A stretch of 58,960 nucleotides of DNA, taken from the IMG/VR virus record IMGVR_UViG_3300029422_000005; one strand, written 5' to 3'. The position numbers and the translations under genes are program-made. The DNA is from a virus. This document shows, one piece after another, positions 7,969-57,672 of the stretch (the first letter of the stretch is position 1; each line of letters starts with the position of its first letter). The notes below the pieces were generated by a model. That model was not told the DNA's origin. It did no database searches and was given only the letters and a program-made list of their open reading frames with translations.

Positions 7969-8046
7969 GTTGCATTAGCTCAGTATGGCTAGAGCATTCG
8001 GCTCATAACCGGACATACATTGGTTCAAATCCATTATGCAGCACCA
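7969..8046 (+). tRNA. tRNA with CAT anticodon (Met elongator type, or Ile2 if lysidinylated), CCA encoded
   Basis: Hand-folded cloverleaf: acceptor gttgcat/atgcagc, D arm gctc-agtatggcta-gagc, anticodon arm ttcgg-ctCATaa-ccgga, variable loop catac, T arm attgg-ttcaaat-ccatt, then A-CCA. Confidence 0.85.
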
Positions 8047-25855: not shown

Positions 25856-26668
25856 ATGAAAGCACTCTTTGATTTTATCTCCAAGCTTCTTGCAGCCCTC
25901 TCCCGCGCTGCCGGAGACAAGGCAGAGGAGCCGGACGCCCCCACTCCTGAAAAAGTGTCCACTGTGGACACCCAGAGCGCCACTCCCCCCGGCTGGGAGG
26001 GCGCACCACCCTACCGCTACATCGACGTGAGCCGGTATCAGGGCAAAATCACCCTCGACGGCTGGCGCAAGGTCAAAGCGGCTGGCTACAAGGGCGTCAT
26101 GCTCAAGACGGTCTCCACGAATCCGAAGATGAGCAAGCGGGCAGATGGTCTGTACATCGACCCCACCTTTGAGCGCAACTACCGCGGCGCCCGGGCCGCT
26201 GGGCTGGACGTGGGTGTCTACTACTACACCTACGCCACCAGCGAGGCTATGGCGGATGCAGAGCTGGCCCTTGTGCGGGAAGCGGTACGCGGCAAAGAAC
26301 TCACCATGCCCGTGTGCGTGGACGTGGAAGAAAATAAGATCAAAAAACTCTCCACGCTTGACCTCACCAACGTGGTGGCCTATGCGCTGGAAAAGGTGGA
26401 AGCCATGGGCTTTTATGCCCAGCTGTACACCTACACGGGCTACAGCTATGAGCTGGACATGCAGCGCCTGGCAGGCCGCTGGGACGTCTGGCTGGCCGAC
26501 TACACGGGCGAGACGCCCAAGGTGGATTACATCTACCACGCCCACCAGCACACCAGCAAGGGCTCTGTGCCGGGCATTACGGGAAATGTGGACCTCAACG
26601 TGACAGAGATCAACTACCCGAAAATCATCCGCAAGAAGGGCCTGACCCGTCTTCGGGAGGGCGCATGA
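25856..26668 (+). CDS. Endolysin, glycoside hydrolase family 25 muramidase
   Basis: TAAGGAGG RBS. ...YIDVSRYQGKITLDGWRKVKAAGYKGVMLK...GVYYYTYA...DVWLADY... matches GH25 motifs. Confidence 0.85.
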   Translation: MKALFDFISKLLAALSRAAGDKAEEPDAPTPEKVSTVDTQSATPPGWEGAPPYRYIDVSRYQGKITLDGWRKVKAAGYKGVMLKTVSTNPKMSKRADGLYIDPTFERNYRGARAAGLDVGVYYYTYATSEAMADAELALVREAVRGKELTMPVCVDVEENKIKKLSTLDLTNVVAYALEKVEAMGFYAQLYTYTGYSYELDMQRLAGRWDVWLADYTGETPKVDYIYHAHQHTSKGSVPGITGNVDLNVTEINYPKIIRKKGLTRLREGA

Positions 26669-26922
26669 GCGACGCGATCATCGTAGCACTCATCACTGGC
26701 GGCCTGAGCCTGAGCGGCGTGCTTATCTCTAACATCATGGCCGCTCAAAACATGGACGCCAAGCTGGAAAAACAGCAGGCCATTACCGACACTAAGCTGG
26801 ACGAGCTGACCCGGGAAGTCCGGACACATAACAATTTTGCCCAGCGCATCCCGGTGCTTGAAGAACAGATGAAAGTGGCGAACCACCGCATTGCAGACCT
26901 CGAAAAAGAGAAAGGAGAGTAA
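26665..26922 (+). CDS. N-terminal TM plus coiled-coil protein (holin/lysis accessory, XhlA-like?)
   Basis: ATGA overlap with the endolysin stop. IIVALITGGLSLSGVLISNIMAA TM segment, then a heptad-rich tail. Confidence 0.55.
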   Translation: MSDAIIVALITGGLSLSGVLISNIMAAQNMDAKLEKQQAITDTKLDELTREVRTHNNFAQRIPVLEEQMKVANHRIADLEKEKGE

Positions 26923-26925
26923 TAC

Positions 26926-27264
26926 ATGGCAATAATCAATAACATTTTGGGCGTCATTCCCGTCCCGGTGGCGGCAGTGCTCATGCTGGGCGGCTTCATC
27001 TTCTACGCCCTTGGCTGCATCCGGCTGGGCTATGGTGCGGCGGTCAAGCCCACCGTGCTCCAGCTCATCACGCAGGCAGAAAAGGACATCCAGGGCACCA
27101 AAAAAGGCGCAGAGCGCAAAGCCTGGGTGGCTCAGATGCTCCGCGCGGCCCTGGCCACAAGCAAATACGGAAGATTTATCTCGTGGGCCATCACCGATGA
27201 AACCATCGGCATCGTGATTCAATTTTTCTTCGACCGCATGAAAGCGGCACTGGAAAAGCAGTAA
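26926..27264 (+). CDS. Holin (LL-H-like)
   Basis: AAAGGAG RBS. N-terminal TM VIPVPVAAVLMLGGFIFYALGCI. 112 aa, adjacent to the endolysin. Confidence 0.6.
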   Translation: MAIINNILGVIPVPVAAVLMLGGFIFYALGCIRLGYGAAVKPTVLQLITQAEKDIQGTKKGAERKAWVAQMLRAALATSKYGRFISWAITDETIGIVIQFFFDRMKAALEKQ

Positions 27265-27277
27265 GGAGGCATAATAC

Positions 27278-27532
27278 ATGGACTTGAGAAACACTGTCGA
27301 AATGATGCTCAGCAGCGATTACAAGGAGCGTTTTCGCGCGGAGTATTACCAGACCAAAATCCGCTATGAAAAGCTGCACCGCATGACTATCCAGTACGAG
27401 GCCGGAACTTTGAATTTTACGCCGTCCTGTTCTTTGGCTCTTTTGAGAGAGCAAAAAGCGGCTATGGGGAATTATCTCCATGCACTCGAAGTCCGTGCAG
27501 AAATCGAAAACATTGATTTAAGCATGAGTTAA
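27278..27532 (+). CDS. Hypothetical protein (84 aa)
   Basis: TAAGGAGG RBS. ...YEKLHRMTIQYEAGTLNFTPSCSLALLREQKAAMGNYLHALEVRAEIE... is a widespread phage protein of unknown function (from memory). Confidence 0.6.
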   Translation: MDLRNTVEMMLSSDYKERFRAEYYQTKIRYEKLHRMTIQYEAGTLNFTPSCSLALLREQKAAMGNYLHALEVRAEIENIDLSMS

Positions 27533-27544
27533 GAGGAGATTATT

Positions 27545-27781
27545 ATGGCAAGCACTACATACGAGCATTTTGTTGACACCAGCAAAATGTACGCCGTACA
27601 AAGACGTTTTCGTGACTTAACGAAAACATTCTGCGATTTTGTTAAGGTCAACAAAATCGACCATCTCGGTAACGTCACCGTAATGGTGCGCAACGCCGGA
27701 GAGTTGCCGCAGCCTTTCTGGCTCGGTGCTGCCTGTGGCGGCGGCTCGTGTAGTGCTGCCACTGTGCCTGCAAGGACTTGA
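27545..27781 (+). CDS. Hypothetical protein, possibly the N-terminal half of a split late regulator
   Basis: GAGGAG RBS. Overlaps the next ORF, which is open in the other frame from 27684. Confidence 0.5.
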   Translation: MASTTYEHFVDTSKMYAVQRRFRDLTKTFCDFVKVNKIDHLGNVTVMVRNAGELPQPFWLGAACGGGSCSAATVPART

Positions 27782-27959
27782 CCAACAGCAGATTACAGCC
27801 GCCATCAAAAGCGCACCGCTTGGGAGGGTTGACCGTAAGATAGCCTTACTGCGGTACGTTGAGCGGCTTCCGCTTCCGGAAATTGCAGCACAGACACATT
27901 ACAGCCGGACGGCAATAGGCTATCGGCTGAAAAGCATTGAAAAAATGCTGGATGTGTGA
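27726..27959 (+). CDS. Sigma-70 region-4-like HTH protein (ArpU/RinA-type late regulator C-terminus)
   Basis: ...DRKIALLRYVERLPLPEIAAQTHYSRTAIGYRLKSIEKML. GTG start with no obvious RBS. Confidence 0.55.
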   Translation: MLPVAAARVVLPLCLQGLDQQQITAAIKSAPLGRVDRKIALLRYVERLPLPEIAAQTHYSRTAIGYRLKSIEKMLDV

Positions 27960-28013
27960 TATAATAACTGTGTTAGTCGAATTAGTTTTGAGCCTCTGCT
28001 CTGACAATTCAAA

Positions 28014-28050
28014 AAGCGGCAGGCTTTCGGGTTTGCCGCTTTTCTTTTTG
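28014..28050 (+). terminator. Rho-independent terminator ending the late/lysis operon
   Basis: agcggca-N12-tgccgct followed by ttttcttttt. Confidence 0.75.
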
Positions 28051-28057
28051 CACGAAT

Positions 28058-28262
28058 TGTGGTATAATGATCTCAACAAATCCTCCCGGCCTCTCGAAGA
28101 AGCGCATTAGGGTGGATATTTGATACAGTCTCCCGCTCGCCTACTCACAGTGCGTACCATGCGAGAGACGTAATTTTTCCGCTTCGGCGGCAGGGCGATT
28201 ACTCGCTCACTTATAATCCATCAGCTTTAGGCTGGTGGATTTTGTTTTATTCGCACTAGTTT
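28058..28262 (+). ncRNA. Candidate sRNA/leader unit 1 (extended -10 promoter to intrinsic terminator)
   Basis: tgtggtataat at 28058-28068. Internal stems gtctc(ccg)ctcgc/gcgagagac and ccgc-ttcg-gcgg. Terminator ccatcagc-tttag-gctggtgg plus attttgtttt. Confidence 0.4.
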
Positions 28263-28385
28263 TGTCGAAAATATTGCCATATATTGGATGATGTGATATC
28301 TTAGCATTGCACTCCAAAGTGTGTACCATTAACAGTTAAGCGCTCATGCGGATTTTTCCGTGTGGGCGCTTTTCTTTTTTGTCCT
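28263..28385 (+). ncRNA. Candidate sRNA/leader unit 2, ending in a 13-bp-stem terminator
   Basis: agcgctcatgcgg-atttttc-ccgtgtgggcgct plus tttcttttttg. Shares the box AGTG[C/T]GTACCAT with unit 1. Confidence 0.4.
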
Positions 28386-28454: not shown

Positions 28455-28973
28455 ATGAGCTATTATCCGGCACCCGGAGCGCCCTACGTTCCGCAGCAGC
28501 CTGTCAATCCTTACGGCGGCATGGGCACTGTTGGTCTTACCGCTTCCCTGCCGAACACACAGATGCAACAGGCACAGCCGCAGCGTCCGCAGCCGATGAA
28601 TGGGCAGCAGCCTGTTCAGCAGTCGGCACAGGACGGAGGTTGGTTACTCGGCAGACCTGTTTCCAGCAGGGAAGAATTTCTGGCGATACCGTCAGACCTG
28701 TACGGCAGACCGACCTATTGCCCGGACTTGCGCAGTGGCGTGATCTACTGCAAGCGGCTCAACCCGGACACCTGTGAATCCTATGTACAGGAGTTTTACA
28801 GCCCGGAAGCATGGCGACAGATGCAAGCACAACAGGCGCAGCAGACCGCTGCACCGACACAGCAGTATGTGCCTATTGAGCAGTACAATGCCCTTGTCCA
28901 CCGACTGGATGAACTGGAAAAATGGCAGAAGAGCTTTTCTAAGCCCGCTACCGCAGCGAAGAAAGGAGAATAA
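28455..28973 (+). CDS. Orphan-operon protein A: Pro/Gln-rich N-terminus, central Cys-containing domain, C-terminal helix
   Basis: AAGGAGGG RBS. MSYYPAPGAPYVPQQPVNPYGG...QQAQPQRPQPMNGQQPVQQ... Confidence 0.7.
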   Translation: MSYYPAPGAPYVPQQPVNPYGGMGTVGLTASLPNTQMQQAQPQRPQPMNGQQPVQQSAQDGGWLLGRPVSSREEFLAIPSDLYGRPTYCPDLRSGVIYCKRLNPDTCESYVQEFYSPEAWRQMQAQQAQQTAAPTQQYVPIEQYNALVHRLDELEKWQKSFSKPATAAKKGE

Positions 28974-28976
28974 GCG

Positions 28977-29228
28977 ATGCCCTCTCCATTTGATATGATT
29001 ACTCACAGCCCTATCATGCAGCTTGCAAATCTGGCTCGTGCCGGGCAAAACCCGATGGGGCTTATCCAGCAGTTGGGTGGGCAGAGCGCACCCATCATGC
29101 AGGGGCTGAACCTGATTCAGGGAAAGAACGAATCACAGCTCCGGACGATGGCGCAGAACCTCGCCATAGAGCGCGGCATCGACCTGAACCAGCTGGCAAG
29201 CGTCCTGAATTTGACGCTTCCGAAGTGA
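28977..29228 (+). CDS. Orphan-operon protein B (83 aa, Gln/Leu/Asn-rich)
   Basis: AAAGGAG RBS, 3 nt after the stop of A. Confidence 0.65.
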   Translation: MPSPFDMITHSPIMQLANLARAGQNPMGLIQQLGGQSAPIMQGLNLIQGKNESQLRTMAQNLAIERGIDLNQLASVLNLTLPK

Positions 29229-29240
29229 GGAGGCTTTACA

Positions 29241-29402
29241 ATGGATGATTTTGAAAACAGCCATCCAGAAAAAGATTTTGACATCAACAATCTGTGTGGC
29301 AATGACAAAATATGGATTCCTTTAATGCTCGGATTGATTTTCGGCGCTGTCAGCAAAACGTGGGACGACCCGAAAGATAAAAAAGACAATCCTCCAAGCT
29401 GA
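29241..29402 (+). CDS. Orphan-operon protein C: 53-aa single-TM peptide starting MDDF
   Basis: GAGGAGG RBS. MDDFENSHPEKDFDINNLCGNDKIWIPLMLGLIFGAVSKTWDDPKDKKDNPPS. Below the ORF-track length cut-off. Confidence 0.55.
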   Translation: MDDFENSHPEKDFDINNLCGNDKIWIPLMLGLIFGAVSKTWDDPKDKKDNPPS

Positions 29403-29543
29403 CTTAACAATCCCCAAATAATCATCCCTCTAAGCGAAACGCTTCTCAGTTTTTGCGGACTTGACAAAAACCGCATTTGTTTGGCTTCGCCCATCGCATA
29501 CGGCGGTGGGATGGCATAACGCAAAACTGAAAGGAGTTTTGTT

Positions 29544-30416
29544 ATGGACGATTTTGCAACTGGCTATCTGGCTGGGCAGGACGGCGGCAATAACAACAGC
29601 GGATTCTTCGGCAACGAAGGTCTGTGGGCGGTTATCATCCTCGCCATCATCTTCGGCTGGGGCGCAAACGGCTATGACCGCAACGGCGGCGACAACGGCA
29701 TGAACGCCTACATCCCCTATCTGGTCGGCACCGGAGCAAGCGGTCAGGGCGGTGCGGACACCCGCGCAGCTCTGTCTGAGGGCTTCTACCAGCAGGACAC
29801 CTCCCGCTCTCTGGCGGGTATCCAGAGCGGTATCTGCTCTCTGGGCTATGACCAGCTGGCGCAGATCAATGGCATCAACGCCAACATTGCGAACGGCTTT
29901 GCTGGCGTGAACAGCGCCATCTGTCAGCTTGGCTACCAGAACGCACAGCTCGTGAACGGTCTGGAACGCAGCGTGTCCAATGGCGACAACGCCATCAACC
30001 TTGCCATCATGCAGGAGGGCAACGCACGGCAGGCTGGCCAGACCGCACTTGCCACGCAGCTGGCATCTTGCTGCTGCGAGAACAAGCAGCTGATCGGCGA
30101 CCTGAAGTACACCATCGCAACAGAGGACTGCGCTACCCGTCAGGCTATCGCAGACAATGCCCGCGCAGTTATCGACAACTGCAACGCGAACTACCGCGCT
30201 ATGATGGACTACTTCACGCAGGATAAGATCGCCACTCTGACCGCTGAGAACCAGAACCTCAAGTTCGCCGCTTCTCAGGATCGGCAGAATGCGCTTTTGA
30301 CCACCGTGATGTCCCAGCAGACTGATACCATCCTGAACCGGGTCAATCCTCGTCCGATTCCCGCTTATCAGGTGGCAAACCCTAACGTGGGCGTGAACTG
30401 CTGCGGCTGCTGCTAA
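29544..30416 (+). CDS. Orphan-operon protein D: MDDF N-terminus, TM anchor, internal about-27-aa repeats, Cys clusters, C-terminal NCCGCC
   Basis: AAAGGAG RBS. LWAVIILAIIFGWG TM. GIQSGICSLGYDQLAQINGINANIANGF / AGVNSAICQLGYQNAQLVNGLERSVSNG. ASCCCENK. Ends VGVNCCGCC. Confidence 0.75.
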   Translation: MDDFATGYLAGQDGGNNNSGFFGNEGLWAVIILAIIFGWGANGYDRNGGDNGMNAYIPYLVGTGASGQGGADTRAALSEGFYQQDTSRSLAGIQSGICSLGYDQLAQINGINANIANGFAGVNSAICQLGYQNAQLVNGLERSVSNGDNAINLAIMQEGNARQAGQTALATQLASCCCENKQLIGDLKYTIATEDCATRQAIADNARAVIDNCNANYRAMMDYFTQDKIATLTAENQNLKFAASQDRQNALLTTVMSQQTDTILNRVNPRPIPAYQVANPNVGVNCCGCC

Positions 30417-30451
30417 CCAACACACTCCCCGATAACACCGGGTGAACCATC

Positions 30452-30488
30452 GGGGCAGGGGTAAGACACCTCTGCCCCTGATTTTTTA
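30452..30488 (+). terminator. Intra-operon intrinsic terminator/attenuator between D and E
   Basis: ggggcag-N13-ctgcccc plus tgatttttt, preceded by a second stem ccccgat/atcgggg. Confidence 0.6.
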
Positions 30489-30501
30489 GGAGGAAAACAT
30501 T

Positions 30502-30873
30502 ATGGCTTGCAAAACAAGCTGCAAACTCTGCTCCCACTTGGTCATCAGTCAGGCGGTCACGTTCGCCAACGATACGCTGACCATCAATATCCCTGCTGGC
30601 GCATACCAGAACGGAGAGAAGTATTGCATCGTGGTTGCCCAGAGCATCCCGGACACGACCACCATCAACGCCCCTGTTGTCATTACCATCGGTGCAGGTA
30701 CGACCGCATACCCTCTGACAGACTGCAACTGCGCTCAGGCAACCGCCGAGAGCATCCACACCCGCACCCGTTACGCTACCCGCGTTGCAACGTCTGCGAC
30801 CGGCACAGGCACGTTCAAGTATCTTGGCTGCTTCTGCCGTTCCCACGCTGGCGCGCCCGCGTCCATTTCTTGA
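30502..30873 (+). CDS. Orphan-operon protein E: beta-rich, Thr/Ala-rich 123-aa protein with terminal Cys motifs
   Basis: TAGGAGG RBS. MACKTSCKLCSH..., ...DCNCAQ..., ...YLGCFCRSH... Confidence 0.7.
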   Translation: MACKTSCKLCSHLVISQAVTFANDTLTINIPAGAYQNGEKYCIVVAQSIPDTTTINAPVVITIGAGTTAYPLTDCNCAQATAESIHTRTRYATRVATSATGTGTFKYLGCFCRSHAGAPASIS

Positions 30874-30886
30874 GGAGGTATAGATT

Positions 30887-31525
30887 ATGGGCAAGACTAA
30901 TTTTCGCCGCATGATGATGCTCCGTGACCACGACAAAGACCGTGAGCCGGAACGTGACCGCCTTGAGGAAGAGCGTGACCGCAGGGAGCGTGAGATGGAA
31001 CGCCGTCTGCGTAAGCTTGAAGGTGGCAACGACCGCTATCCCTATTATCCGCAGGAGGAGAACCGCTACATTGACCCATACCCCATCCCCCGCTACCCTG
31101 ACGTAGAGTATGGACGCAAGATGCCGCAAATCGGCTTCTCACAAAACGGCGACTGGGATAAGCGGTCGGGACAGTACGAACGTGGCGGCGCAGACAGCCG
31201 CTCCATCAAGATGCCACGCCAGCACCTCACCCACGATGAAGCGGAGGAATGGTGCGACAGCATGGTGAACGCTGATGGCACGAAAGGCTGTCACTGGACG
31301 CTGGAACAGACACAGGATGTTGCCAAGCAGCGCAATATCACCTGCGACCCAAACGATTTCTGGGCTGTCATGAACATGATGTACTCGGATTATTGTCAGG
31401 TTGCAAAGCGTCAGTCCGTTGACACTCCTGGCTTCTACGCTGACATGGCAAAGGCGTTCCTTGAGGACGTAGATGCCGCAGATGGCAAGGCATATCTCTA
31501 CTGGGATTGCATTGCTGATAAGTAA
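30887..31525 (+). CDS. Orphan-operon protein F: Arg/Asp/Glu-rich N-terminal tract plus a Cys/Trp-containing C-terminal domain
   Basis: GAGGAGG RBS. RDHDKDREPERDRLEEERDRREREMERRLRK..., C-terminal ...ADGTKGCHWTLEQTQDVAKQRNITCDPNDFWAVMNMMYSDYCQVAK... Confidence 0.7.
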   Translation: MGKTNFRRMMMLRDHDKDREPERDRLEEERDRREREMERRLRKLEGGNDRYPYYPQEENRYIDPYPIPRYPDVEYGRKMPQIGFSQNGDWDKRSGQYERGGADSRSIKMPRQHLTHDEAEEWCDSMVNADGTKGCHWTLEQTQDVAKQRNITCDPNDFWAVMNMMYSDYCQVAKRQSVDTPGFYADMAKAFLEDVDAADGKAYLYWDCIADK

Positions 31526-31530
31526 ATAAG

Positions 31531-31565
31531 AACCCCTGTGTAGTCGTAATGACCGCACAGGGGTT
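31531..31565. terminator. Bidirectional hairpin (aacccctgtg/cacaggggtt) between convergent operons
   Basis: Perfect 10-bp stem read directly from the sequence. Confidence 0.7.
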
Positions 31566-31571
31566 TGTACT

Positions 31572-31985
31572 TTAGCAAGTTCCTGTATCTCCAATTTTCT
31601 TCATGGTGCTCTTAAGATTTGGCACATCTGCTTCCGGCATTTTACGTTTGATGCCAATAATCGCTTGCGTGATTCCAGCTTTGTTTAACTGGTTTACAGA
31701 CTTACGGAACACAAAATCAATGTTCATATTCGCCTTGATTGTTCCGTCATCTTCAAGATAGCAGTTTGGAATCCACACATTTTGATTGCTTCCATTGATT
31801 TTGAAACGCTTTGCTTTGTAGCAACCGTAATCCTCTCTTACAATCAGCTCAACAGGAATACCCTTGTAATACTGCGTGTCAGTATTGTACTTTTCAGCCA
31901 GTTTTGCTTTACGTTTTGCTACCTCTGCGTTGATTTTGGCTTGTTCCTCTTTGCTTCTGTGCTTGCGTGGTCTATATGGTCGCAT
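31572..31985 (-). CDS. Hypothetical basic protein (137 aa)
   Basis: ORF track. Lys/Arg-rich N-terminus. Confidence 0.6.
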   Translation of the reverse strand: MRPYRPRKHRSKEEQAKINAEVAKRKAKLAEKYNTDTQYYKGIPVELIVREDYGCYKAKRFKINGSNQNVWIPNCYLEDDGTIKANMNIDFVFRKSVNQLNKAGITQAIIGIKRKMPEADVPNLKSTMKKIGDTGTC

Positions 31986-57517: not shown

Positions 57518-57672
57518 GCTTTTTCACTCACTTTCTGGGCCTTGCCCCTTTACTTTAGTATACCATGTTTGCAGTCCATTAGATAGGATTTTCAAAAAAT
57601 ATTTTTGCTCTTTTGGGCAATGGGGCGGGGTTGCTTTATCCGGTACAGCCCCGCTAAAGTGTCCGGGCGGCA

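Follow-up and report, generated by a model that had tools for sequence, protein, structure and literature searches.

The stretch of DNA analyzed here, IMG/VR virus record IMGVR_UViG_3300029422_000005, comprises 58,960 nucleotides and is referred to in its full length as the window. It contains a cassette of six genes, here named A to F, at positions 28455–31525 of the plus strand. Gene A (28455–28973) encodes a protein of 172 amino acids (aa), in which an N-terminus rich in Pro, Gln and Tyr precedes a small conserved domain, a coiled-coil and a tail rich in Lys, and is followed by gene B (28977–29228), the 83-aa product of which is helical and rich in Gln, Met and Asn. The 53-aa product of gene C (29241–29402) repeats the MDDF N-terminus and the hydrophobic helix of protein D, the core protein of the cassette, which has 290 aa and is encoded at 29544–30416. 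Protein E (30502–30873; 123 aa) was modelled as a beta-sandwich of eight strands with a cysteine-rich N-terminal arm, and protein F (30887–31525; 212 aa) has an N-terminal half rich in Arg/Asp/Glu and Tyr/Pro, followed by a DUF7841 domain. An earlier note on the window, made from the sequence alone, had described six consecutive plus-strand open reading frames (ORFs), each with a strong ribosome-binding site. The coordinates agree with this description, and a GGAGG-like site was located 5–10 nucleotides (nt) upstream of the ATG in all six ORFs.

The ratio of nonsynonymous to synonymous polymorphism (pN/pS) was calculated for each gene against 33–71 near relatives, taken from a set of 80 loci with 92–100% identity in D that was obtained by scanning IMG/VR. 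The ratios were 0.077 for A, 0.098 for B, 0.193 for C, 0.121 for D, 0.104 for E and 0.049 for F. Purifying selection was thus clear in all six (pN/pS 0.05–0.19), showing that these are real genes rather than chance ORFs. The upstream flank contains genes for a GH25-type endolysin and holin-like proteins, with the lysis genes at 25856–27264, and the downstream flank contains genes for an anti-repressor (Ant), ParA and Rep on the opposite strand. The placement of the operon between a lysis module and a plasmid-maintenance block, as proposed in the earlier note, is therefore correct, and so is the description of this site as the end of the late arm beside plasmid maintenance.

We scanned the six proteins against Pfam, PHROGs, NCBIfam and PADLOC-DB 2.0. 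The Pfam and PHROGs profiles returned only families of unknown function and no confident match to a virion or lysis protein. Protein D matched phrog_16490 (3.9e-39, 136 bits), protein A matched phrog_21718 (1.2e-9) and residues 109–202 of protein F matched DUF7841 (PF25223; 5e-26, 91.6 bits against a cut-off of 25.2), all three of which are of unknown function. No tail, head or fibre family in PHROGs passed for any of A to F, the single marginal match being that of A to a tail-fibre family (E 0.034). No match in the lysis category was obtained for A to F in PHROGs, Pfam or NCBIfam, no PADLOC-DB 2.0 family matched any of the six proteins at E ≤ 0.1, and no enzyme-like or effector domain (nuclease, ATPase, NADase) was identified by Pfam, PHROGs or NCBIfam. 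This agrees with the statement that the proteins fit no virion, lysis, replication or known defence family. Sequence and profile searches of the PDB with E, the E family, its replacement E' in other lineages, the D family, the A family and F yielded nothing significant.

The description of the operon as an orphan did not hold, as thousands of homologues were found, together with three PHROG families and one Pfam domain of unknown function (DUF). In a collection of 5.8 billion proteins, at least 7,307 homologues of D were counted as clusters at 90% identity, single clusters holding thousands of member sequences, and 2,043 homologues of E. The E profile identified 369 clusters at 50% identity. 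For F, 228 homologues were found, and nearly all of the 120 that were listed carry DUF7841 only. Informative names were absent among the homologues found, and no functional or proteomic data for cassette genes were found in the literature on DUF7841, the "viral fiber" label in crAss phages, the Clostridium perfringens carrier phages, the Methanomassiliicoccales viruses and the Bacteroides uniformis phage. The families were already catalogued as unknowns, and the new finding is that they belong together in a single cassette of defined architecture that crosses domains.

This architecture was derived from 254 loci bearing D, in which ORFs were called, neighbouring genes were clustered and profiles were built. 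Dereplication at 80% identity reduced the loci to 82 D lineages, and the denominators given for the individual components are the lineages with enough flanking sequence (65–79 of the 82). Protein A was encoded near D in 56 of 73 lineages and B in 42 of 73, a count that may be low since the profile probably missed the short B protein in some lineages. E or E' followed D in 72 of 79 lineages; directly 3' of D, E was present in 33 lineages and E' in 39. E' is a protein of 125–140 aa that belongs to phrog_20016 and replaces E directly after D in other lineages. Likewise, the place of F after E or E' is taken elsewhere by F', an Arg/Asp/Tyr/Met-rich protein with a helical C-terminus, and F or F' was located near D in 47 of 74 lineages. 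Thus, the conserved core of the cassette consists of A, B and D, a small beta-sandwich protein (E or E') and a low-complexity charged protein (F or F'), a conclusion that is well supported by the lineage counts.

The same gene order recurs in unrelated genomes, which answers the question of whether the genes co-occur as a block. In bajarodcaudo virus 5, the order is holin, endolysin and a small helix-turn-helix (HTH) gene, followed by A-, B-, D- and E-like genes, and the gene order of the cassette is likewise seen in C. perfringens phage CPD1, in the metagenomic phages L001–L004 and in the temperate phage L093. The cassette of crAss-like phages was laid out by reading of the sequences and comprises a D protein with a B-like N-terminal motif, a 136-aa beta-rich protein with cysteines, a protein that combines a beta-rich start with a coiled-coil, and a charged protein of 74 aa.

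Additional genes were observed within or near the cassette in some lineages. CPD1 has an ORF of 216 aa between the B-like and D-like genes (L006 5573–6223), which resembles an HNH-type endonuclease by eye only. In 90 loci that belong to other lineages, a protein of 105–130 aa with an HExxH motif is encoded on the same strand as D and 1–3 kb downstream of it (for example L168 10019–10405 and L136 11611–11931). It is not recognised by Pfam and is absent from the lineage of the window. Two small proteins with the HExxH motif are also encoded in the crAss-like cassette (L007 5141–5488 and 7721–8116). The idea that proteins encoded downstream in other phages are ferritin-like or CotJ-like was dropped, as there was no Pfam match.

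The location of the cassette differs between genomes. It follows the lysis genes in the window, bajarodcaudo virus 5, CPD1 and the crAss-like phage cr116_1, and it lies between a CHAP endolysin and an integrase in a temperate phage (L093), between major capsid and adaptor genes and two SGNH-esterase proteins in another phage (L168), and beside a tyrosine integrase, methylases and an anti-repressor in a third (L136). In cr116_1, the cassette is contained in a block of 3.7 kb between the orthologues of crAss001 gp30 (45% identity) and gp31 (47% identity). These two genes are only 236 bp apart in crAss001, where the cassette is absent. The virion of crAss001 has reportedly been mapped by cryo-electron microscopy, and we infer that the core particle of the crAss001/cr116_1 group does not include products of the cassette.

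Genomes with the D family are mostly those of gut Clostridia (Oscillospiraceae, Acutalibacteraceae, Lachnospiraceae and the chromosome of Anaerotruncus colihominis), and the nearest genomic match (94%) was obtained in a metagenome-assembled genome of Clostridiales. Homologues of D are also encoded by crAss-like phages, by the B. uniformis phage C3_41T2LP and by two Methanomassiliicoccales viruses, and the D proteins of the archaeal viruses carry the phrog_16490 label in their GenBank records. The varied locations, the insertion in a crAss-like phage and the occurrence in viruses of Methanomassiliicoccales therefore identify the cassette as an autonomous accessory module. We conclude, with good support, that it is a horizontally mobile accessory cassette of tailed viruses infecting strict gut anaerobes.

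We also observed that the region after the lysis genes is variable in content. The near relatives L021 (4047–6296), L031 (3619–5667) and L044 (3816–5744) contain a gene for a collagen-repeat, fibre-like protein of 640–750 aa between the holin and HTH genes, and sister phage-plasmids encode a Gp10_C protein (PF21939) at the same post-lysis place (L256 2067–2573). The window contains only a gene of 84 aa at that place (27278–27532). The alternation of these genes identifies the post-lysis region as a swap site for fibre-like genes.

Just upstream of the cassette, a small protein with an HTH of the sigma-70 region-4 or LuxR type is encoded on the plus strand at 27726–27959 (77 aa, GTG start). It matched the sigma70-ECF family of NCBIfam at 1.4e-4, below the cut-off, and the transcriptional regulator family phrog_36 at 1.2e-4. 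A comparable small HTH gene was present upstream of A in 25 of 65 dereplicated lineages, and among these upstream genes one matched PF04545 (6.6e-7) and another GerE (9e-8). The HTH protein is thus probably a regulator that travels with the cassette. In the window, an ORF of 78 aa (27545–27781) overlaps the HTH ORF in another frame, and the same overlap was seen in the relatives L021, L031 and L044, where ORFs were called with the longest possible starts. The two overlapping ORFs could represent two genes or one frameshifted sigma-like factor.

A candidate sigma-70-like promoter is located at 27937–27965 (+), within the 3' end of the HTH gene. The site was predicted by consensus only and consists of TTGAAA and TATAAT separated by 17 nt, with an extended -10 TG, matching the consensus at 11 of 12 positions. 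The leader between the HTH gene and A is 495 nt long and contains three terminator-like hairpins on the plus strand, at 28012–28043, 28215–28241 and 28338–28371, with z-scores of -3.4, -2.6 and -5.7, respectively. It is a mosaic, in that separate segments are kept in separate subsets of the 80 relatives, and no Rfam family matched within it. Judging from the sequence, the leader hairpins could serve in attenuation or antitermination, or could be small RNAs.

An intrinsic terminator that splits the operon into ABCD and EF had been predicted in the earlier note, as had a hairpin that closes it, and both were recovered. The hairpin between D and E (30452–30478, +; -25.2 kcal/mol, z -4.0) is followed by the T-run TGATTTTTT, and the closing stem-loop (31530–31566, +; -24.8 kcal/mol, z -6.7) is common to the cassette and a convergent minus-strand gene ending at 31572. 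Both fold far better than shuffled sequence. Defining a strong hairpin as one of at most -15 kcal/mol within 45 nt, we identified such a structure 3' of the D stop codon in 58 of the 82 lineages, as compared to 24 of 82 for control segments inside D and 17 of 81 for segments further downstream. The hairpin sequences themselves vary between lineages. We read the conserved hairpin after D as selection either for a larger amount of the A–D products than of the E–F products, or for a stable end of the A–D transcript.

The cassette thus has a predicted promoter-like site of its own, a leader with terminators and a closing terminator. Together with its presence or absence at the same spot in related viruses, as in cr116_1 and crAss001, this bears out the proposal that it is a cargo-type module. 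Morons such as bor and lom of phage lambda are single genes with their own promoter and terminators. The cassette resembles them in that it is self-contained, has terminators and a promoter-like site of its own, lies at the end of a late operon by a lysogeny or maintenance module and is present or absent among relatives. However, it differs from them in being a conserved multi-gene unit that spans viruses of Bacteria and Archaea.

The sequence features of D noticed in the earlier note are present. The two tandem repeats are 24–28 aa long and share 11 of 24 residues when aligned on IC.LGY, the CCC cluster is located at residues 176–178 and the protein ends in NCCGCC. Across the family, D begins with a short, acidic N-tail, with a mean of 3.9 Asp/Glu as compared to 0.9 Lys/Arg residues. 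A hydrophobic core follows from about residue 27, where the Kyte-Doolittle mean over 15 residues was at least 2.0 in 85% of 217 family members. In D of the window, the maximum over 19 residues was 1.70, a value that reflects hydropathy only. The hydropathy analysis therefore agrees with the predicted membrane-type helix in D. The helix ends in the motif WGxNG, and both the helix and the motif are kept from the Firmicutes phages to the crAss and archaeal versions. The remainder of D is characterized by Gly-rich linkers, Asn/Gln/Ala-rich helical repeats, the motifs AASQxxQN and PxPxPAYxVxNP and a CCC triplet that is invariant or nearly so. The C-terminal tail is always CxC-rich, as in GCGCNSGCGC, and the tails are rich in Gly, Tyr and Cys. 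We observed no clear pattern between the type of tail and the choice of E or E'. The MDDF start followed by a hydrophobic helix, which C and D had been said to share, was seen in both sequences. C was present in 35 of the 80 near relatives and is thus an optional component.

Homologues of D in crAss-like genomes have been labelled "spike protein/glycoprotein" or "viral fiber" by other annotators. In our searches of the PDB, the best matches of the D family profile were to class I fusion proteins (E 0.17–0.7, 13–14 bits) and were not significant. D resembles the fusion proteins influenza HA2 and coronavirus S2 in having a hydrophobic, Gly/Trp-rich N-terminal segment, helical repeats and a cysteine-rich C-terminal end, but it has no C-terminal membrane anchor. 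The similarity probably reflects composition, and it is the source of the "spike protein/glycoprotein" label on the crAss-like homologues.

Apparent fusions of D or E to other proteins were also inspected and rejected. A protein that joins a collagen fibre to the C-terminal half of D (P0188) comes from a single contig, breaks in the middle of a domain and joins unrelated genes. Fusions of D or E to a small terminase subunit, a ROK kinase, a CHAP domain and an integrase (P0294, P0349, P0361 and P0375) likewise break in the middle of domains, and all of them look like assembly chimeras. Such metagenomic fusions are unreliable as functional links.

The position of the cassette beside an integrase or a plasmid-maintenance module, its predicted host-type promoter and flanking terminators and the membrane-type anchor on D are features expected of an anti-phage defence or superinfection exclusion system that occupies a prophage moron hot spot and is expressed from the resident phage-plasmid. 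We consider this explanation improbable. The scans against PADLOC gave no match, and no nuclease, ATPase, NADase or other effector-like domain was detected in the six proteins. Furthermore, the cassette is also present in crAss-like phages at a late-gene position, and a set of six proteins that look structural would be atypical of a defence system.

Protein E was modelled with AlphaFold2 from an alignment of 71 sequences, which gave a predicted local distance difference test (pLDDT) score of 86.5 and a predicted template modelling (pTM) score of 0.77; a previous model from 26 close homologues only (pLDDT 51) was not used. The model is a beta-sandwich of eight strands, as anticipated from the beta-rich sequence. 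Cysteines are located at positions 3, 7, 10, 42, 75, 77, 110 and 112, and include those anticipated towards both ends of the protein. The first ten residues, which contain C3, C7 and C10, have low pLDDT, consistent with a flexible arm. These three cysteines are invariant in the 26 close homologues, and C10 is kept in at least 90% of the 71 diverse members. E matched no Pfam family at E ≤ 1, including DUF3992, and neither E alone nor the E family profile matched any sequence in the PDB. A comparison of the model to PDB structures with Foldseek yielded nothing at E ≤ 0.001, the best match being to a chain of the baseplate/tail-fibre complex of phage Pa193 (E 0.09, TMq 0.45), which is not significant. 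In BFVD, the top matches were small uncharacterised phage proteins, followed by parts of long fibre and collagen-repeat proteins (E 5e-5 to 1e-2, template modelling (TM) scores of 0.45–0.6). The model also matched a crAss-like "DUF7841 domain-containing protein" in BFVD, which hints that an E-like fold and the domain of F may share one polypeptide. The profiles of E and E' were unrelated (hhalign probability 0.5%). E' of one lineage (L107) matched BclA_C (PF18573), a trimeric knob fold, at 1.8e-4 and 21.8 bits, below the cut-off of 38, and E' of another (L108) showed no such match.

These weak similarities raise the possibility that the cassette encodes an accessory fibre or decoration of the virion, in which D would form a trimeric coiled-coil shaft that docks by its hydrophobic N-terminus, and E or E' would form a distal knob attached via the cysteine-rich ends. 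A, B and F would then be helpers in assembly or attachment, and the module would be dispensable, coming and going like side or head fibres. We regard this explanation as the main rival of the one preferred below and hold it tentatively. In favour of it are the BFVD matches, beyond the relatives of E itself, to parts of long tail fibres and collagen-repeat proteins, the baseplate/tail-fibre chain as the best, though not significant, PDB match, the weak likeness of E' to BclA_C and the fibre and spike labels given to D by others. The cassette is also co-oriented with the late genes, and in L168 it lies between head genes and proteins with an SGNH-esterase domain, a domain that occurs in tail fibres. 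Genes with collagen repeats or Gp10_C adjoin it in sister phage-plasmids, and a role in the virion would explain how viruses of three widely differing host groups come to carry it.

However, what D has kept in siphovirus-like, crAss-like and archaeal viruses alike is the helix with WGxNG. A docking site on such different particles should vary, whereas all the hosts have a lipid membrane. The conserved hairpin between D and E speaks against a shaft and a knob made in a 1:1 ratio, and the scans identified no PHROG family of tail, head or fibre proteins apart from the marginal match of A. The cassette has an HTH regulator of its own, and its neighbours in L136 are a methylase, an integrase and an anti-repressor rather than structural genes. 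The D–collagen fusion in P0188 adds nothing to the case for a fibre, as it stems from one contig and resembles the assembly chimeras with breaks in the middle of domains. E and E' also differ from fibre tips and from the C1q/TNF-like C-terminal knob of BclA in being free-standing proteins of 120–140 aa without a shaft. The matches to these structures are weak or below curated cut-offs, E itself shows no match to BclA, and neither D nor E matches a tail-fibre family in PHROGs.

The arrangement of cysteines in E is also reminiscent of the Ena1A and Ena1B subunits of Bacillus (DUF3992), which are small beta-sandwiches with a flexible N-terminal arm containing conserved cysteines able to link subunits. 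The earlier note had speculated about spore-coat subunits, and in a corresponding explanation the cassette would convert the spore surface or build disulfide-linked appendages of the Ena type, in which E would be the pilus subunit and its N-terminal cysteines would serve as connector. The floppy cysteine-rich arm on a beta-sandwich body, the many spore-forming Clostridia among the hosts and the weak resemblance of E' to the exosporium domain BclA_C are in keeping with this idea. Yet, we consider it very improbable and did not retain it. E has no DUF3992 domain, and no Ena or F-Ena structure was present among the best 50 of the 200 weak PDB fold matches of the E model. E pairs with a protein that bears a membrane-type anchor, and the D family, with neighbours that by reading have a similar layout, is present in viruses of the non-sporulating Bacteroides and Methanomassiliicoccales. 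Inspection of the six proteins by eye, with no predictor run, revealed neither a signal peptide nor a sporulation-type feature.

Among the remaining proteins, A has the Pro/Gln-rich N-terminus noticed in the earlier note (24 Gln and 20 Pro residues) and a small domain with the conserved motif G[RK]xV.S.EE...G...IY.K...G...Y. A scan of 20 diverse members of the A family with Pfam revealed no family common to more than two of them. A suspected likeness of A to GerQ was dropped for want of a Pfam match. In the D proteins of the crAss, Bacteroides-phage and archaeal-virus versions, the N-terminus bears a motif similar to the C-terminal motif of B. In F, the Arg/Asp/Glu-rich N-terminal half is present as described. 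A DUF7841 protein labelled Segatella hominis by NCBI (P0464, on L256–L258) is 90% identical to F over the domain. Its contigs are nevertheless ParA/Rep3 phage-plasmids like the window and were probably mis-binned.

The six proteins look like parts of a self-assembling structure and none looks like an enzyme. The low complexity of A (Gln/Pro/Tyr), B (Met/Gln) and F or F' (Arg/Asp/Glu/Tyr) and the Gly/Tyr/Cys-rich tails of D suggest one further explanation, namely a cross-linked or phase-separated matrix made of A, B, F or F' and the cysteine-rich proteins D and E, located within infected cells or surrounding released particles. Such a matrix could, for example, be a coat hardened by cysteine oxidation once the virus leaves the anoxic gut. 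The lack of enzyme-like domains in the six proteins fits this explanation, as does the finding that the host groups identified so far are all strict gut anaerobes. Nevertheless, we think it unlikely, since the argument is one of composition, with no homology or structural support. Moreover, A and F also contain conserved folded domains, and a matrix would leave the conserved hydrophobic helix of D unexplained.

The reading that we prefer, to which we assign a probability of roughly 0.35, is that D forms a membrane-tethered assembly, with E and F as minor partners, that would act at the cytoplasmic membrane late in infection. The anchoring of D in the membrane, the cytoplasmic location of its bulk, the joining of D and E by cysteines and a service of A and B to the N-terminal region of D are all inferred from sequence features. 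D would be produced in excess over E and F, given that the terminator-like hairpin after D is conserved across lineages. It would insert in the cytoplasmic membrane via its single hydrophobic helix, and its long helical, cysteine-rich part would remain in the cytoplasm, as suggested by the acidic N-tail with almost no Lys or Arg, the partners without a signal peptide and the high cysteine content. D may then oligomerise through its coiled-coil region, and the CCC triplet and the CxC-rich tail may bind metal or cross-link, thereby recruiting the cysteine-rich arm of E. A and B might handle the N-terminal and hydrophobic region of D, a role in line with the apparent fusion of a B-like motif to D in the crAss and archaeal versions, and C, as a copy of the N-terminus of D, might modulate it. 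The assembly would act in egress or in the control of lysis or, less likely, in a block of superinfection. A late action on the cytoplasmic membrane is proposed because the hydrophobic helix of D is kept in viruses with very different virions and host envelopes, this membrane being the sole partner common to Clostridia, Bacteroides and the wall-less methanogens, and because lysis genes often adjoin the cassette.

Spanins (Rz/Rz1) and XhlA/XepA of PBSX combine a membrane anchor and a coiled-coil with a small cysteine-bearing partner, are encoded beside holin and endolysin genes and are non-enzymatic. The cassette resembles these systems, in that a coiled-coil comes after the predicted anchor of D, a small partner with cysteines is present, the genes lie beside holin and endolysin genes and the mode of action would be non-enzymatic. 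However, there is no homology to them, E has no lipoprotein signal, the cassette comprises five or six genes and a regulator of its own, and in its Gram-positive and archaeal hosts there is no outer membrane that could be fused.

Several observations weigh against a membrane-tethered assembly. The hydrophobic stretch of D is short (about 15 residues) and flanked by Gly and Asn, and the C-terminal side of the helix shows no clear positive-inside signal, with 0.74 Lys/Arg as compared to 0.73 Asp/Glu residues. The stretch might therefore serve as an anchor that is buried within an assembly of proteins. In addition, the modelled fold of E is nearest to distal parts of tail fibres (TM about 0.45–0.6), and E' is weakly BclA_C-like, which would fit a fibre knob better than a cytoplasmic factor. 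Fibre-like genes (collagen-repeat and Gp10_C) are located in the same post-lysis region of near relatives, and no holin, spanin or exclusion family was matched. A broader version of the membrane-tethered assembly, which we put forward as somewhat doubtful, is that the cassette encodes a host-independent membrane machine of gut viruses of Bacteria and Archaea. In such a machine, which would be previously unrecognised and shared by tailed viruses, an abundant, membrane-anchored D coiled-coil, linked by cysteines or metal and joined by beta-sandwich and low-complexity proteins as minor partners, would provide a new route for egress, lysis control or exclusion that acts on the cytoplasmic membrane alone.

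With regard to the window as a whole, the closest phage records in GenBank were obtained from human faecal samples. IMG/VR contains many contigs of 56–61 kb in which D is 92–100% identical to that of the window, mostly from dataset 3300045988. The window is probably a complete or near-complete genome of a very common gut phage-plasmid lineage. Outside the cassette, it contains a RAGATH-5 RNA (RF02685) on the minus strand at 57614–57666, which matched the full length of the model with 62.2 bits against a gathering score of 50, and a gene for tRNA-Met (CAT) on the plus strand at 7969–8046, within the packaging and head region.

Genes of the D and E families rank among the more common "dark matter" of human-gut phages, and the D family crosses the boundary between hosts in Bacteria and Archaea and reaches the crAss-like phages. 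The analysis joins previously scattered hypothetical proteins of five or six families into one testable unit, which has a core that is now defined, a regulator and an internal terminator that is conserved. Cultured carriers of it exist in the C. perfringens phages and one B. uniformis phage. Should the cassette act on the membrane, it could bring to light a step in egress or exclusion common to viruses of hosts with very different cell envelopes. If it encodes a fibre, it would represent a new two-part, cysteine-linked fibre design specific to the viruses of anaerobes.

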